Part shown: positions 22,499-42,963 of the stretch, in pieces
How positions within the stretch are numbered: position 1 is the first letter of the stretch
How the letters are laid out: every line of letters starts with the position of its first letter
Program-made: the position numbers and the translations under genes
DNA from: a virus
DNA length: 64,000 bases
Strand: one strand, 5' to 3'
Virus record (IMG/VR): IMGVR_UViG_3300009506_000023
Location: 1,597 to 65,596 of that record
Notes under the pieces: generated by a model
Databases searched by the model: none
Told to the model about the DNA's origin: nothing
What the model saw: only the letters and a program-made list of their open reading frames with translations

Positions 22499-22878
22499 AC
22501 AGACAGAGAAACATAAATATTGTTTTGGTTATTTTGAGTTTAGTGCTTATCTTCTCGTGTGCTAAGAAAGAAGTTATACTTACTCAGGAGCAAGAGGCAG
22601 AGCGTGCCTACTATGAGGCTAAGTATGTCCATGCTACAGCTGAGATGAAGTTTACACAGGCTCTATTAAAGTACAATCTCTGGTGTAATAATCCAGAATA
22701 TAAAGAGGCATGTTCTAAAGTGGATGATCTTTGGCTAAAGGCAAATAGTGCTCTTGATACATGGGGGGCACTTGTTGATTCAAAATCGCCTTCTACTGGT
22801 GCTGCTGATGATTATCAGAGCCAGCTAAAAGCACTGAAGACAAAACTCCTGATGGAGTTACCAACATATTCTTGGTAA
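22495..22878 (+). CDS. Lipoprotein (o-spanin-like candidate)
   Basis: Signal plus lipobox LIFSCAK. 127 aa, adjacent to a membrane-protein gene in the lysis region. Confidence 0.35.
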   Translation: MNRQRNINIVLVILSLVLIFSCAKKEVILTQEQEAERAYYEAKYVHATAEMKFTQALLKYNLWCNNPEYKEACSKVDDLWLKANSALDTWGALVDSKSPSTGAADDYQSQLKALKTKLLMELPTYSW

Positions 22879-22884
22879 GGAGGA

Positions 22885-23097
22885 ATGATGTCAATTACAC
22901 CGCTTGAGATGAAACTCCTATTAGTAGGAGCAGATTTAGCATCCGATGTTCTCATGGACATATACTTTGACATGAAAGGGTCTGGTAAAAAATCCATAAC
23001 TGCTGAGGAAATTCTTGCCATGGCTCAGAAATGGAAGAGTATAAAAGATACTGAGATCAGAAAAGTCCAAGAGAGGATTTCTGCCAGTAAAACCTGA
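22885..23097 (+). CDS. Hypothetical protein
   Basis: 70-aa ORF, the last + strand gene before the convergence point. Confidence 0.3.
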   Translation: MMSITPLEMKLLLVGADLASDVLMDIYFDMKGSGKKSITAEEILAMAQKWKSIKDTEIRKVQERISASKT

Positions 23098-23101
23098 TAT
23101 G

Positions 23102-23201
23102 TGCGACAGCTTGCTGCGACCACTAACTAGACGAAACACTACAATAAAATTACCTTAAGAAAAGGCGTACTAGTTGAATCGGGCTATGCTGTCGCATTTT
23201 T
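23102..23201 (+). terminator. Candidate intrinsic terminator for the + arm (9-bp stem tgcgacagc / gctgtcgca with a long loop, then TTTTT)
   Basis: Reverse-complement arms at 23102-23110 and 23188-23196, followed by ttttt, at the convergence of the two arms. Confidence 0.3.
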
Positions 23202-23260
23202 AGGATAAAATCGTTTTTAGCCCTTTTATAGTAATGGCTCAGGAAAACGGCTCCTGCATT

Positions 23261-23318
23261 TCGCTTGCATTCTACAATCTAGGGTTGGGGAATACCTAAG
23301 TATAGGGGAATTTTAGCC
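23261..23318. repeat. Conserved ~58-nt intergenic element, copy A
   Basis: CTCCTGCATTTCGCTTGCATTCTACAATCT AGGGTTGGGGAATACCTAAGTATAGGGG. Related copies at 32651, 48297 and 57476. Confidence 0.7.
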
Positions 23319-23978
23319 TTTTTTAACAGAACTAACTTTTTTAGTCTTAGTTACATGGAAAGTTGTCTCTGCCTCTATATTTACACCCTCAGCATGTGAG
23401 ACAATTATCTGTTGGAAGCCCAAATCATTAGAAACCATATTAAGCATTTCTGAGATTTTATATTGTAGAGCAGGGTCAGCATTTCTGAAAGGCTCATCAG
23501 AAAGTAAAGTCTTCCTAACTTCATAATCACAATACTCATCCTCTAAGAGAATATAGGCAATTCTCAAAATATAATCTGCTACATCAACGTAGCCATAACC
23601 TGAACACTCTAATGGGTGCTGCTCTCTTTCTCCTTCCTTAAAAAGTAAGTCGCACTCTGTAGCACCTCTTCTCTCAACCATCCTTACAACAAATTCTGGT
23701 GGCTTCGGTATTGTAGCAGATTTCACTTCTACTGAAGATAACGCCATAGTTGTTATGTTAGATAGGTGTTTCTCTATTTCACTCTGAGTCTCACGAGCAA
23801 CTACCTTGAGGATTTCTTGGGCTTCTTTGGCTGCTATTAAGTCTTTCTCAGCCTCTTCTTTATCAGCCTTGAGTCTCACCAGCCTATCTCTTGTGCTATT
23901 TAGGCTTATAAGCATCTCGTCAACGTATTCTCTTATATCAACTAGTTGCTCTTTCATATTCATTTGAGATTTCCTCAT
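23313..23978 (-). CDS. SbcC/Rad50-like ATPase, C-terminal lobe (Walker B, D-loop, H-loop)
   Basis: N-terminal coiled coil. ECSGYGY is a degenerate signature. LLSDEPFRNADPA matches Walker B/D-loop and QQIIVSH the H-loop. Confidence 0.5.
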   Translation of the reverse strand: MRKSQMNMKEQLVDIREYVDEMLISLNSTRDRLVRLKADKEEAEKDLIAAKEAQEILKVVARETQSEIEKHLSNITTMALSSVEVKSATIPKPPEFVVRMVERRGATECDLLFKEGEREQHPLECSGYGYVDVADYILRIAYILLEDEYCDYEVRKTLLSDEPFRNADPALQYKISEMLNMVSNDLGFQQIIVSHAEGVNIEAETTFHVTKTKKVSSVKKG

Positions 23979-24195
23979 ATAATTTCTTTATTCTTTTGCT
24001 AATATTCTCAAGTTCTGCTTTACCGTCTTCTATAAAAGAATTCATTTCTTCCTTAGAATTAATATCATATGAGTCCTTAAGTTGTTTCATATAAGTCTTT
24101 ATAGCCCCTTGAGATTGAGCCCTTGCCTCTTTTCTCTCTACTATATAAGACTCCATAGTTTCAACTTCGTCTTTTATTCTTTCAATCTCACCCAT
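23938..24195 (-). CDS. Coiled-coil protein, likely the returning coiled-coil arm of the SbcC C-half (frameshifted relative to 23313..23978)
   Basis: 85 aa and entirely heptad-like. Overlaps the next ORF by 41 nt in another frame. Confidence 0.35.
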   Translation of the reverse strand: MGEIERIKDEVETMESYIVERKEARAQSQGAIKTYMKQLKDSYDINSKEEMNSFIEDGKAELENISKRIKKLYEEISNEYERATS

Positions 24196-25102
24196 CTCCC
24201 ATAATCCTTCCTATGAAGTTTTCTGTCCTTTTACTCAAAGCCTCATCCTTCTTTAAAGACTCGACTCGGTTAAAAACTCGTTTCCTATAATCAAGACCTT
24301 TTATCTTAGTCTTTTTCTTTAGGACATCTCTAAGCTCATTGAGCCTTAGATTTTCTTTCTCCTCTTTCTCTACTTCCTCAAAGTCAACTACTTTATCAAA
24401 AGGCTCTATTGGTATAAATACTTCTTCAATTTCTCTTGAGTCTGTATCATATATAAATACTGATGGCCTATGTCTTGCTTGATCTATTCTGCTTCTCATA
24501 AGAGAGCCACAATTAATAAGAATCCTGTCCTTCCACCTGTGAAGAAATGATGTGTGGTTATCTCCACTTACTACAAGGTCATAGCCATAACGTCTTAGGA
24601 AGGTTCCAGCTACTTCGTAATCTTCTTGACCAGCCCAAAGCTTGTCTGCAACTATCATCCTATGAGTTATAAGTATATTCAGCTTATCTTTATCTTGTAT
24701 TTTCGGAACTGGCTTTCCCCATCCAGAGCCATAAACATTGGTTCTTCCACTTAAGAGTGGTATATCGTAAGCCATCCTCATACCAATACCAGATTTTATT
24801 ACACCGTATGGTGTATTAGATAGGTTACTTGTATGGTATCTCATATCGTGCTGACCAGGAACTGAGATTATTATTGGAAGTGCTGGTCTCTTCAAAATAT
24901 CTATCCACCTAACTTTGAAGCTATCGCTTGAGAAATGTTTATCTGTTAGATCACCTGGCTGTAAAATAAATGAGCACTCGAAATGAGCAGCTGCTTCAAG
25001 TATGAATTTTATCTTCTTCTCTTGTGCTAATTGATAATCATCTATCCTACATCTTGGAGTCTTATCTGTTAGGTGCCAGTCACCCGTAATTAAGAGTTTT
25101 AT
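24188..25102 (-). CDS. SbcD/Mre11-like nuclease, probably starting at a non-canonical codon upstream of the track start
   Basis: The frame is open up to a TGA at 25127-25129. It encodes DIKLLITGDWHLTDK...QPGDLTDKH (Mre11 motifs I and II) upstream of the first ATG/GTG/TTG, with RBS GGGAGGTG 6 nt before an ATA codon. Later motifs are GDNH and ITHRMIV. Confidence 0.5.
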   Translation of the reverse strand: MKLLITGDWHLTDKTPRCRIDDYQLAQEKKIKFILEAAAHFECSFILQPGDLTDKHFSSDSFKVRWIDILKRPALPIIISVPGQHDMRYHTSNLSNTPYGVIKSGIGMRMAYDIPLLSGRTNVYGSGWGKPVPKIQDKDKLNILITHRMIVADKLWAGQEDYEVAGTFLRRYGYDLVVSGDNHTSFLHRWKDRILINCGSLMRSRIDQARHRPSVFIYDTDSREIEEVFIPIEPFDKVVDFEEVEKEEKENLRLNELRDVLKKKTKIKGLDYRKRVFNRVESLKKDEALSKRTENFIGRIMGDG

Positions 25103-25103
25103 A

Positions 25104-26210
25104 TCACACCTCCCGCCAGTGTTTTCTCAAAGCACCACATTTAGTACAGTATTCTAACTGGCTCTCTAACTCTTTTAGCTTTTTATCACTTTTATCTATC
25201 TGATTAGAAAGAGATGATATTATTACCTCTGTATTTTTTATCATAGAAGATATATCCATAACATCAAGAACTGCATTATTTATGAAGTTATAATCATTTA
25301 TAAGCTTTTTCACCTCAGATACTTTTGGCTCTAAGGCTATTATAGCATTAGCTTGATCTTCATCTGCCTCCCAGCTCTCTATCATTGTGCGTATATAAAC
25401 AGCTCCACTTATTTCTTCTTCTTTTTTATCACTCTCTTCTATTAGCCTTTTTAAAACCCCTATGGCTGGGAGTATGTGCTCAACAGAGTTATAAGACTTT
25501 ATATTAAGCTCATGCTCACTAATATTATCTTTAATCTCTAAAAGATAGGCTAATTCTGCTTCATCAGAATCGAATGTATCTATTAACTCATCAATTTTCG
25601 CAAGCTTAAGCCTTAGTCTTTCTGCTGTCTTAAATTCAACACTTTCGAGTTCTTTCTCTGTACCCTCTATCTGCTCACCTAAAAGAGTGATTTTATTCGA
25701 CAGGTGTTTGACTATTGTCTTAGCCTTAGATGCTTTCTCGTCTATTATCTTTAGACCTACAACCTTATTGAGTTCAGAAGACACTTGCCCAGGTGTCTTA
25801 TCTATAAGAAAGTATTTATCTTTTTGTGTGAGGATATTATGAGATCGTAGCTTTGTTATTTCTCTTATCTCGTCTGGTACATCTGTTCTTAATGCTACAA
25901 AAGGCTCTTTGTGCTCAGAGGTTATGTAGCCATTAATCGTTCTATTTTTCTGCCTACTTATAAATGACCCTTCACCGAAGGCGATTGATACAGATACTTC
26001 GTCAGCAAGTTTAGCATCATCATTTCTGTATTTATCACCAGCCCCTCTTGGTCTATTCTCAGCAGCCCATTCTACAGCCCTAACAATAGATGATTTTCCA
26101 GAATGAGTACGACCTTTAATTATATTCAATCCAGAAGAGAAGTCAAGTAATGTGTACTTGTGCCCTTGAAAGTTTATGATTTCTATTTGGTCTATTGGCC
26201 AATTAGACAT
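25104..26210 (-). CDS. SbcC/Rad50-like ATPase, N-terminal half (Walker A plus coiled coil, ending at a CxxC zinc-hook-like motif)
   Basis: GRTHSGKSS is Walker A. A ~250-aa coiled coil follows. Terminal ...LEYCTKCGALRKHWREV. Confidence 0.55.
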   Translation of the reverse strand: MSNWPIDQIEIINFQGHKYTLLDFSSGLNIIKGRTHSGKSSIVRAVEWAAENRPRGAGDKYRNDDAKLADEVSVSIAFGEGSFISRQKNRTINGYITSEHKEPFVALRTDVPDEIREITKLRSHNILTQKDKYFLIDKTPGQVSSELNKVVGLKIIDEKASKAKTIVKHLSNKITLLGEQIEGTEKELESVEFKTAERLRLKLAKIDELIDTFDSDEAELAYLLEIKDNISEHELNIKSYNSVEHILPAIGVLKRLIEESDKKEEEISGAVYIRTMIESWEADEDQANAIIALEPKVSEVKKLINDYNFINNAVLDVMDISSMIKNTEVIISSLSNQIDKSDKKLKELESQLEYCTKCGALRKHWREV

Positions 26211-40942: not shown

Positions 40943-41596
40943 TTACATGCTTGCCCTTTTACCATATCCGACTATTTTATCTTTTATAAAGAACCAAGAT
41001 GGTGATGTATCACCTTTAGCTTCTACAGCAGAAGGGTCTGTTAAATAAATAGGTGAAAATTTATGATTAGAAGTGTACTGTTCAACTACAGTTCTCACAG
41101 CACACTTCTTCCCACGGTTAGCGAAGTCATGCCCACTGACAATCCCGTTACGTTTAACCTTTCTTGTCCATAAAATAATATCCAGCATGAAGAAATCATA
41201 CATATGATTACCATCAATGTATACAAAATCCAGAGAGTTATCCTTCACTCTATCAAAGACAAACTCGCTGAAACCTATAAGCCATGTAGCATCATGGTGC
41301 ATCACAGCTTTAATTGCTTTCTCCATATTCTTTGAATGTAACTGGCTACCCCACCTTATTGTGCTAAATGGGTGATCCTTGTATGGATCAACGAGAAATA
41401 GCTTAAGGTCTGGTATTGTCTTAAACATATGAACAGCATTACTGCCTTTTAGGACACCGACTTCACATCCCTTCCTAAAATTAAGGGATGAGAAGAATTT
41501 ATATAAACCAATTCTGCTCATCCCTTCTACTGTTACAATGCCAACACGATTTAATCTTAAATCGTATTTTTCATCAAGAACCTTCTTTGGATTCAT
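40943..41596 (-). CDS. Class I SAM-dependent methyltransferase (TylF/MycF-like O-MT fold)
   Basis: VGVLKGSNAVHM resembles a glycine-loop region. LDFVYIDGNHMYDFFMLD is typical of that MT family. Confidence 0.5.
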   Translation of the reverse strand: MNPKKVLDEKYDLRLNRVGIVTVEGMSRIGLYKFFSSLNFRKGCEVGVLKGSNAVHMFKTIPDLKLFLVDPYKDHPFSTIRWGSQLHSKNMEKAIKAVMHHDATWLIGFSEFVFDRVKDNSLDFVYIDGNHMYDFFMLDIILWTRKVKRNGIVSGHDFANRGKKCAVRTVVEQYTSNHKFSPIYLTDPSAVEAKGDTSPSWFFIKDKIVGYGKRASM

Positions 41597-42963
41597 TTAT
41601 CCTCCCGAACCCGTTGAAATATTGGTAATCTTAAACTTCCGTCATTAGTCTCAGAGTCTGCGTGTACCTCAATAACTGAAGGCAAATCCTCAACGTAAGC
41701 TTTCCGCTGGTCATCGGACATTTTACCTGATACTCTCACCTTCTTTCCTTTATACTCGCATATAAAGGCACCGAGCATCTCTTCCATCCTTGTTCCTTTT
41801 CTGCCATACTCAAATCCAATAACAGGCAAATCAACCTCTATACCCATACCTTTCAGATATAGAGCTTTAATCCTAAACCAGTGGTCAGACCTTTCCATCT
41901 CGTGCCGATGGTCTTTTGTCTTAAGAATAATGCCTTCATTCCCGTCAGCAATTACACCTTTAGTCAAGATTCTTGCGGCATCAGCAGGGTCTGTAGTCTT
42001 GCCTACACCAACAAGATAATCCCAAAAGTCCATATGCTTCAGCCTAAAAACTTTATCGCTAGACTTAGACGCTAATTTTAAGAAATCATATTTCTCACCA
42101 GATGTTGTGTGTAAGTACCCTAACATATTGTATCTCTCTATGTATGGTAGGTCACATATAACATCCCAAACAAGAAACCGATAAATCTCAGGGTCAATAT
42201 TGTAGATTCTTCTGGCATGTTTCTGCATTGACTGGAAGTCACCATCTTTTGAGACACACTCACCATCAAATACCATAGGGTAGTCTACACCAAAACCAAA
42301 GTGGATTGTTTTAGCGAGCCTCACCAGCTCCTTATCAAATACTTTAAAGTTCTCATACGGCTTGCCATTTGTTGATAGATATTCTACCTCACCATTTCTC
42401 TGTACAGTAGCATAAGATATTCTGAACCCATCAACTTTTATAGCATAGCCAATATTGTCCAAGGTCTTTGCTAATTTGAGAAATTTTTGCCATTGCCTGT
42501 CTGGAAACGGGTTGTCACCCTTTGGCTTCATAACTTCGTAGAGAGGAAGTTCATCCTCACTAATAAAGTTCTGGGCAGTTTTTATGTTTACACCGCACCT
42601 TAAGTCTTTCTTTAAGATTTTAAGCACAACATCCCGTGTTTTATCTGAATACGAACACAAATTGGCAAGAAATTGTTTCTCTGAATCAGTAGCCCCCCTC
42701 TTATTTGACATAAGCATAAGAAAGTGGAATATTGCCCCTGGTTCTTGGAAGTCAACTCGTCTGGTTTGTTTTATGTCAAGAGTTGCTTTGGGAAGTTTGT
42801 TAATGTTGTAGTGCATGTGCGGGTGTAAAGCATAGATAACTGTATTCTTTAGCCAAGGTGTCTCTTTTAGAAGAATGCCCAGCTTTTCCAGCTTCTCATT
42901 CCTCGAAGAGATTTTTGCCAGCTCTGACAATGCGTCAGATACTCCATTCAAATTATCAATCAC
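41593..42963 (-). CDS. ATP-dependent DNA ligase
   Basis: AIKVDGFRI matches motif I K-x-DG-x-R. EGIILK matches motif IV. C-terminal LRLPIFQRVREDK is ligase-like. Confidence 0.7.
   Translation of the reverse strand: MIDNLNGVSDALSELAKISSRNEKLEKLGILLKETPWLKNTVIYALHPHMHYNINKLPKATLDIKQTRRVDFQEPGAIFHFLMLMSNKRGATDSEKQFLANLCSYSDKTRDVVLKILKKDLRCGVNIKTAQNFISEDELPLYEVMKPKGDNPFPDRQWQKFLKLAKTLDNIGYAIKVDGFRISYATVQRNGEVEYLSTNGKPYENFKVFDKELVRLAKTIHFGFGVDYPMVFDGECVSKDGDFQSMQKHARRIYNIDPEIYRFLVWDVICDLPYIERYNMLGYLHTTSGEKYDFLKLASKSSDKVFRLKHMDFWDYLVGVGKTTDPADAARILTKGVIADGNEGIILKTKDHRHEMERSDHWFRIKALYLKGMGIEVDLPVIGFEYGRKGTRMEEMLGAFICEYKGKKVRVSGKMSDDQRKAYVEDLPSVIEVHADSETNDGSLRLPIFQRVREDK

Follow-up and report, generated by a model that had tools for sequence, protein, structure and literature searches.

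A phage Mre11-Rad50-type locus with the Rad50 homologue encoded in pieces and cut at the zinc hook

Archaeal and eukaryotic Rad50 as well as bacterial SbcC are made as a single chain, which runs along the arm as far as the CxxC zinc hook at its tip and then returns, and the gene of the nuclease Mre11 or SbcD adjoins. There is still debate on why Rad50 needs so long an arm, with the chain going to the hook and returning, and it is unclear whether the chain has to be continuous there. Here we describe a locus in 64,000 nucleotides (nt) of a virus (IMG/VR record IMGVR_UViG_3300009506_000023, positions 1,597 to 65,596), a stretch which we call the window and from whose first letter all positions are counted. 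Four genes lie there in a row on the - strand (23313-26210), encoding the N-terminal half of a Rad50/SbcC homologue (N-half), an Mre11/SbcD-like nuclease, a helical protein of 85 amino acids (aa), named cc in the following, and the C-terminal lobe of Rad50 (C-lobe). As in Rad50 and SbcC, the same ATPase motifs occur in the same order, a CxxC hook is found at the far arm end, an Mre11/SbcD-type gene adjoins, and the best profile matches in the PDB are to these proteins. In contrast to them, the chain stops 2-16 residues past the hook, and two other genes, separated from the first by that of the nuclease, encode the remainder. Both lobes and both coiled-coil strands, which are one polypeptide in Rad50/SbcC, are distributed over three genes here and in 70 loci of relatives. 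Because the pieces lie in three separate genes, we class the system as a variant and not as an ordinary member of Rad50/SbcC; it is a known kind of Mre11-Rad50 system in an unusual form, with three Rad50 pieces and a cut at the hook. A split at this place was not found described in the literature searched.

Among phages, T4 (gp46/gp47) and T5 (D13/D12) also encode a Rad50-like ATPase and an Mre11-like nuclease in a recombination and replication module. T4 gp46 comprises 560 aa, which is similar to the 589-700 aa of the three pieces in the family of the window, but gp46 is unsplit and gene 47 lies ahead of gene 46. In a comparison with gp46 by hhalign the N-lobe alone aligned (74% probability). 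No T4-like phage was returned by tblastn of the pieces against phage records, and a close relationship to gp46 was not found. Two-chain forms of Rad50 have been engineered. In the crystallographic constructs 1F2T, 1II8 and 3QKR, whose chains are those matched by the profiles below, separate N- and C-terminal fragments reassemble into the ATPase head, and a Rad50 divided at the hook into two chains, in which FKBP takes the place of the hook, gave a functional complex (PMC3642328). These are laboratory constructs with truncated or replaced arms, whereas the system of the window is natural, keeps the hook and consists of three pieces.

Genes and motifs of the locus

All features given in this section lie on the - strand. 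The gene of the N-half (25104..26210) encodes 368 aa, in which the N-terminal ATPase lobe is followed by helices of about 195 aa in all and, close to the C-terminus, by a predicted zinc hook of the CxxC type. The N-terminal lobe exhibits both motifs expected of Rad50/SbcC, i.e. the Walker A motif or P-loop GRTHSGKS (residues 33-40, 26091..26114) with the invariant residues G33, G38, K39 and S40, and the Q-loop glutamine Q129 (25824..25826), an invariant column in two homologue alignments. Both cysteines of the hook motif C355-T-K-C358 (25137..25148) are invariant, too. Position, Walker A motif and the coiled-coil or helical part agree with an earlier reading of the window made from its letters alone (in the following, the sequence-only reading), and the motifs are conserved across relatives. 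This reading let the protein end three residues after the CxxC, which is incorrect, as 10 residues follow the second cysteine (CTKCGALRKHWREV, then the stop); the C-terminus reads ...LEYCTKCGALRKHWREV. The N-half matches AAA_23 in Pfam (expectation value (E) 8e-11) and PHROG 16465, annotated as 'exonuclease' (E 8.5e-25). A profile of 11 homologues had its best PDB matches in Rad50 of M. jannaschii and P. furiosus (E 4e-14). The Pfam model Rad50_zn_hook scored 13-23 bits, in all cases under its cut-off of 24.3.

The complementary motifs are found in the C-lobe (23313..23963, 216 aa from the likeliest start; alternative starts at 23978 and 23957), which begins with a helix of about 55-60 aa and then passes into the C-terminal ATPase lobe. 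It carries the signature motif SGYGY (23589..23603), in which both glycines are invariant (family consensus SGGG), Walker B (DEPF) and D-loop, LLSDEPFRNADPA (23469..23507), with D154, E155 and P156 invariant, and the H-loop histidine H188 (23394..23396), invariant in an alignment of 34 sequences. The motif set of an ATP-binding cassette (ABC) ATPase is therefore present exactly once and shared between two proteins, since the motifs are divided between N-half and C-lobe. A scan of the C-lobe against Pfam gave no match. PHROG 15167 ('ATPase') was matched over the full length, and the best PDB match of the C-lobe profile was 3qkr_B, the C-terminal chain of P. furiosus Rad50, in an end-to-end alignment (E 1e-11). 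The sequence-only reading had named these C-lobe motifs and their different frame from cc correctly, and the 221-aa open reading frame (ORF), whose nature as an ABC lobe had been set beforehand as the point to check, has Rad50 as its best structure in the profile search. The overlap of 41 nt between cc and C-lobe given there holds for the longest possible C-lobe ORF (23978..23313); from the likeliest start, 23963, the overlap is 26 nt. This start is favoured by a GAGGA 8 nt upstream, by the relative L018, which begins with MNMRERLVDIR, and by the 216-aa gene call in an independent assembly. A database copy of 214 aa begins at 23957.

Between these two genes lies the nuclease gene (24188..25102, +1 frame, 304 codons counted from an ATA). 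The protein matches Metallophos in Pfam (E 4e-9) and the SbcD-like PHROG 100, and its profile matched only Mre11/SbcD structures in the PDB. The AlphaFold2 model (predicted local distance difference test score (pLDDT) 87.8) has a calcineurin-like phosphoesterase fold, and the top 50 PDB matches by Foldseek were all Mre11/SbcD (template modelling (TM) score about 0.6). The residues of the Mre11 metal motifs D8, H10, D51, H85, D86, H147 and GDNH 180-183 are invariant in the family. In the model the core extends to about residue 235 and is followed only by three helices (241-266, 272-285 and 291-301), predicted at lower confidence (pLDDT 52-81); a separate strand-rich (capping) domain is absent from it, and the TM score of about 0.6 fits a shorter protein. 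Motif III of the nuclease (residues 82-85, 24848-24859) reads GQHD throughout the family, with a nearly invariant glutamine. In Mre11/SbcD this motif is usually GNHD, i.e. a metal-ligand asparagine is swapped for glutamine here.

The gene of cc (23938..24195, 85 aa) follows, and its start overlaps the nuclease stop (ATGGGTGA).

Conservation of the split in relatives

When 50,697 phage records were searched with the region by blastn and with the C-lobe by tblastn, nothing was retrieved, and a scan of IMG/VR with the single C-lobe sequence gave no match either; a profile scan of IMG/VR did retrieve relatives. Fifteen loci were gathered by nuclease sequence and 80 more by C-lobe profile out of at least 507 C-lobe relatives in IMG/VR; the comparison covers 78 distinct loci. 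The order N-half, nuclease, cc and C-lobe on one strand was found in 70 of the 78 distinct loci, at 25-45% identity, and in 70/78 the gene 3' of the nuclease gene is a cc homologue of about 79 aa. The median sizes are 355 aa for the N-half (306-416 aa in complete copies from distinct IMG/VR loci) and about 308, 79 and 205 aa for nuclease, cc and C-lobe, respectively. The chain ends 2-16 residues past the CxxC, usually CPLC, in 69 of 73 distinct N-halves. These values show that the split arrangement is far above chance. Thereby, the naturally split Rad50/SbcC with an Mre11-like gene between the halves, as proposed by the sequence-only reading, is supported by profiles and conserved gene order.

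Furthermore, the C-lobe occurs as a short protein of its own far beyond these loci. A HMMER scan of 1.84 billion representative proteins returned 1530 clusters (50% identity) at E <= 1e-30, and the best 150 of them are nearly all about 200 aa long; the best 120 matches in 90% clusters measure 187-237 aa. Where longer matches occur, their extensions are unrelated to cc or to the Rad50 pieces. The split form is widespread and ancient.

The pieces are also separable. In 22 of the 70 loci cc and C-lobe genes are more than 150 nt apart, and other ORFs or spacers part the N-half and nuclease genes in 37/70 (gap >150 nt). In loci with cc and C-lobe directly side by side, the offset between their frames varies (24 loci with +1, 20 with +2 and 4 with 0). 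The best explanation is that the four genes are translated as separate polypeptides of one operon with overlapping stops and starts.

Two relatives carry a gene for an NAD-dependent DNA ligase (612-621 aa) between cc and C-lobe (L019:2136-4001, L020:2173-4011), and their C-lobes are 65-71% identical to that of the window. The ligase of the window is instead ATP-dependent and located elsewhere (41593-42963, - strand). The gap between cc and C-lobe measures about 1.8 kilobases (kb) in L025. In L012/L038 (IMGVR_UViG_3300009009_000003) cc and C-lobe lie about 7 kb downstream of the N-half/nuclease pair; contiguity is not obligatory. The nuclease gene of L062 (3558-4459) is broken into ORFs of 116 and 122 aa and that of the near-identical L054 is intact, i.e. 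damage to the nuclease gene does occur within the split-Rad50 family. The hook deviates in three loci (L007, L010 and L084), where it reads CPIF(E/D/S)(I/V)(T/N/P)C and six residues, not two, part the cysteines; the N-half ORF of L052 has no cysteine pair at its end.

Among the 50,697 phage records, tblastn of the N-half found matches only in Bacillus phages and in one Christensenellales phage. In the Bacillus phages phBC6A51, PHBA67-T, vB_BboS-125 and 0305phi8-36 the N-half likewise ends at a CP[LT]C hook; the accompanying small ORFs measure 77-100 aa, and the C-lobe, homologous to that of the window (hhalign 99%), is a protein of its own with 211-236 aa. The gene order differs. In phBC6A51, where the nuclease gene lies 3' of the C-lobe, BC1852 ('Exonuclease SbcC', 518 aa) ends with ...CPLCESPMSFDHSH; two small ORFs separate it from BC1855 ('Chromosome segregation ATPases', 211 aa; hhalign 99% to the C-lobe profile), and SbcD comes later. 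In 0305phi8-36 the nuclease is fused in front of the N-half: gp8 (L016:2978-5287) is an Mre11::Rad50-N fusion ending at a CPTC hook, followed by gp7, gp6 and gp5, and gp5, three genes downstream of gp8, is the C-lobe (hhalign 99% to the C-lobe profile). The Mre11/Rad50 fusion of 0305phi8-36 has been published and was reported to be without a P-loop segment. This published fusion holds only the nuclease and the Rad50 N-half, the C-lobe being separate, and the same may be true of other viral Mre11/Rad50 fusions in the literature. Such fusions are catalogued in a 2026 preprint, which does not describe the hook split. As tblastn with BC1855 yielded only nine phage records, the split arrangement is rare among cultured phages.

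In vB_BboS-125 the N-half is parted from a 78-aa ORF by an AP2-domain gene (L106:3179-3751) that occupies precisely the break. Genes with AP2 domains are usually linked to homing endonucleases, and this position hints that insertion of a mobile gene may have created or maintained the split. Phage genes in pieces are a related case; the ribonucleotide reductase of a T4-like phage is reportedly split by a homing-endonuclease gene. An essential enzyme made as separate polypeptides with another gene at the break is common to both, and the AP2 gene of vB_BboS-125 fits this picture. In the family described here, however, the inserted gene is the enzyme's own nuclease partner, and the arrangement is ancient and widespread and not a recent insertion.

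The split explains annotations of 'truncated' or 'fused' phage Rad50 such as that of the 0305phi8-36 fusion. It also suggests a rule for annotation: next to an AAA_23 protein that ends in CxxC beside a metallophosphoesterase, an ATPase lobe of about 200 aa and a helical ORF of about 80 aa are to be expected nearby.

Assembly of the pieces and the role of cc

The best explanation for the whole is a phage Mre11-Rad50-type machine for DNA-end processing with Rad50 in pieces and a nuclease started at AUA, to which we assign a probability of about 80%. In such a machine the N-half would provide Walker A, Q-loop, the outgoing arm helix and, at its C-terminus, the zinc-hook cysteines, and the C-lobe protein would provide its N-terminal helix together with signature, Walker B, D-loop and H-loop. 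Because neither of them alone is a complete ABC ATPase, both would have to assemble in trans. This is feasible, as the matched PDB chains are co-expressed N and C fragments and the engineered Rad50 split at the hook works (PMC3642328). The N-terminal helix of the C-lobe (about 55-60 aa) would pair with the first helix of the N-half arm. The hook-proximal return strand would most likely be filled by cc, pairing with the last 75 or so residues before the hook, and two N-halves would join via zinc. The nuclease probably docks on the arm base through its three C-terminal helices; its gene adjoins those of the Rad50 pieces.

For cc, the sequence-only reading proposed a pure coiled coil acting as the second strand of the arm. 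The latter is plausible, if weakly supported; the former does not hold, since the protein is not unbroken: the family, with a length of about 79 aa, has an invariant glycine and a break in the middle of the protein (LKxEFGxxS). A place in the arm is suggested by the shortest systems, in which the lengths sum up: in an N-half of 306 aa the helix has about 145-160 aa, and its counterpart would consist of cc (78 aa) and the C-lobe helix (about 55 aa). When cc was appended in silico to the final 70 residues of the N-half, Rad50_zn_hook matched across the junction in 7 of 10 loci with 13-22.9 bits, running into the N-terminus of cc. With the N-half tail alone the score was lower or absent (in L004 none, compared to 21.2 with cc; in L090 16.3, compared to 22.9), and reversed cc joined to the tail gave no match to this model. 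The best PDB match of the cc profile was a Rad50 coiled-coil fragment (6zff), which at E 0.03 is not significant and may reflect coiled-coil composition.

Several observations weigh against the proposed assembly. The junction scores of cc all remain below the Pfam cut-off of 24.3 bits. Neither the 17 matches of the cc profile, all of 78-90 aa, nor the longer C-lobe matches included a natural fusion of cc with one of the Rad50 pieces. Whereas N-halves range from 306 to 416 aa, cc keeps a constant size (75-93 aa, mostly 78-80; r = 0.08). Simple strand-for-strand pairing would not lead one to expect this and would require the extra segments of the N-half to fold on themselves. The conserved glycine and the break LKxEFGxxS belong to the same side, and cc could be a helical hairpin or an accessory factor. 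When the three pieces of the window were modelled by AlphaFold2 as one chain without an alignment, only helices were predicted and the lobes remained unfolded (pLDDT 47.5). Finally, the ATA codon treated below could equally mean a nearly silent nuclease in this lineage.

According to a rival explanation, the protein of about 80 aa is not an arm segment, being instead an accessory adaptor or regulator of the nuclease-ATPase complex, or a hairpin capping the free hook end, with the helices of the N-half folding back. We regard this as possible, albeit rather doubtful. Besides the fixed length and the glycine-containing break, it is supported by the coupling of cc to the nuclease gene, which is the tightest of the locus (median gap -4 nt), and by the indels of the N-half, whose step size of about 50 aa is that expected of helical hairpins. 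Self-folding helical hairpins are a conjecture that would fit these steps. The summed lengths in the shortest systems, the higher hook-model scores with cc than without it and the non-significant match to 6zff speak against it and for the arm strand. A comparison of cc with the small ORFs of the Bacillus phages by hhalign was not significant (best BC1854, E 0.012, 36 columns).

If cc does form part of the arm, one may go further and imagine a large ancient lineage of phage Mre11-Rad50 machines with a discontinuous Rad50 arm, in which a free C-terminus carries the hook and two non-covalently bound proteins, one of them the module of about 80 aa with its fixed size, form the return strand; we offer this picture with little confidence. 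Should the discontinuity be functional, it could be a built-in gate for loading DNA into the ring, or it could tune assembly and stoichiometry via separate translation, of which the AUA-started nuclease would be one extreme. Independently of this, hundreds of phage lineages have a chain that ends just behind the hook cysteines, and with them nature offers a test of whether continuity through the hook matters. With about 590-700 aa in total, the family is compact and suited to reconstitution and structural work.

The tail behind the hook is itself conserved in the subclade of the window, which is typified by CxxCG(A/S)xxxxW with a conserved tryptophan (25107-25136 in the window). This extended tail was found in the loci L023-L028, L033, L036, L037, L041, L045, L070 and L089. 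In the window and its two closest relatives within this subclade, L018 and L024, cc lacks the otherwise conserved C-terminal (Y/F)xW and ends with ...YERATS instead. The N-half tail behind the hook and the C-terminus of cc may contact each other.

The nuclease start, gene borders and genomic setting

As noted by the sequence-only reading, the nuclease motifs GDWH and GDLTD lie upstream of any ATG, GTG or TTG; the first canonical start is a TTG at 24895. The frame is open from a TGA at 25129..25127 and encodes DIKLLITGDWH...GDLTD... A Shine-Dalgarno-like GGGAGG (25114..25109, - strand), situated within the last codons of the N-half gene, precedes an ATA (25102..25100, - strand) by 6 nt, likewise as described before, and this ATA lies 1 nt past the stop of the N-half (25106..25104). 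The residue aligned to the isoleucine encoded by ATA is the first nuclease residue in all 39 comparable relatives (MK[LIF]L..GDWH). Their start codons are ATG in 37 cases, GTG in one and TTG in one, and ATA occurs solely in the window (1/40 loci). The closest relative (L023/P0122, nuclease 66% identical), for which the comparison at DNA level rests on the 1.6-kb contig L023, has ATG at this position (...AAAAATATGAAACTCTTAATTACAGGTGACTGG, compared to ...GGTGTGATATAAAACTCTTAATTACGGGTGACTGG in the window). The difference is a G-to-A substitution in the third base, with no indel. A Logan contig (SRR14699975) is identical to the window over 7028 nt including the ATA; as it possibly derives from the same reads, it rules out an error of the assembler, though not a variant peculiar to the sample. 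From the options listed by the sequence-only reading, a sequencing frameshift falls away, because ATA sits exactly where the relatives have ATG, and an AUA start with translational coupling remains.

Judged from the sequence around it, translation most likely begins weakly at AUA, aided by the ideally spaced GGGAGG and by ribosomes that terminate 1 nt ahead of it. After a change from ATG to ATA, the nuclease would be made by initiation at AUA with low efficiency or by re-initiation after the N-half stop. In E. coli, initiation at AUA reaches 1-2% of that at AUG (bioRxiv 10.1101/063800). This low value, together with the uniqueness of ATA among the 40 comparable loci, would also be in line with the main alternative, a recent loss-of-start mutation by which the nuclease is effectively switched off here, the phage relying on host SbcCD or another nuclease. 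We consider such a loss unlikely. The frame of 304 codons is intact, and every invariant residue of the family is kept. A silenced gene would be expected to gather further lesions, because its mutations escape selection, and none are seen. Moreover, the closest relative has a weaker Shine-Dalgarno sequence, and the GTG and TTG found in relatives indicate that weak starts are tolerated. The ATA is a minor curiosity of this lineage, which may report how little nuclease the complex needs.

Two other explanations of the start were rejected. Reassignment of ATA to methionine is at variance with its occurrence at Ile/Val positions in conserved columns, e.g. I30 of the N-half. An ATT at 25090 lies 18 nt from the Shine-Dalgarno sequence, and a start there would remove the first strand of the fold.

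Separate translation of the genes has to be weighed against a programmed recoding that joins the pieces, either by a frameshift between cc and C-lobe or by a prfB-like +1 shift at GTG-TGA-T fusing N-half and nuclease. The overlapping ORFs and the GGGAGG just ahead of the stop would suit it, and skipping of the T of TGA would give ...REV-DIKLLITGDWH. It is nevertheless very improbable, given the mixed cc/C-lobe offsets and the spacing of the genes described above for both pairs. In the +1 frame GUG would be unable to re-pair on UGU. The Shine-Dalgarno sequence of prfB sits 3 nt upstream of the P-site codon, but here GGGAGG overlaps this codon. A nuclease tethered at the hook end would moreover be at the wrong end of the arm, and relatives show an ATGA overlap or intervening genes at this place in lieu of the features of a prfB-like site. 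A split intein was considered, too, and rejected, as no intein-sized sequence is present at the ends. The weakest explanation, according to which frameshifts or pseudogenisation broke one continuous sbcC and an indel removed the ATG of the nuclease, an alternative left by the sequence-only reading, takes its appeal from the C-lobe overlapping cc in another frame and from the missing canonical start, but is refuted by identical break points in 70 distinct loci, varying frame offsets, whole genes between the pieces in many loci, a second assembly without a single difference, the substitution in place of an indel at the ATA, and the nuclease gene standing between the Rad50 pieces, which makes their rejoining by an indel impossible.

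The split Rad50 locus is placed in a phage recombination and replication module. Its neighbours encode a RuvC-like resolvase, a 5'-3' exonuclease (flap exonuclease), a UvsX-like recombinase, a large DNA polymerase and the ATP-dependent ligase mentioned above. No transfer RNA genes were found within the 64 kb. The region 22878-23313, directly behind the C-lobe gene, is the meeting point of two transcription directions, and the GC skew switches sign there: + strand genes, which are apparently structural (upstream ORFs of 1686 and 1822 aa), stop near 23097, and the - strand genes for replication and recombination stop at 23313.

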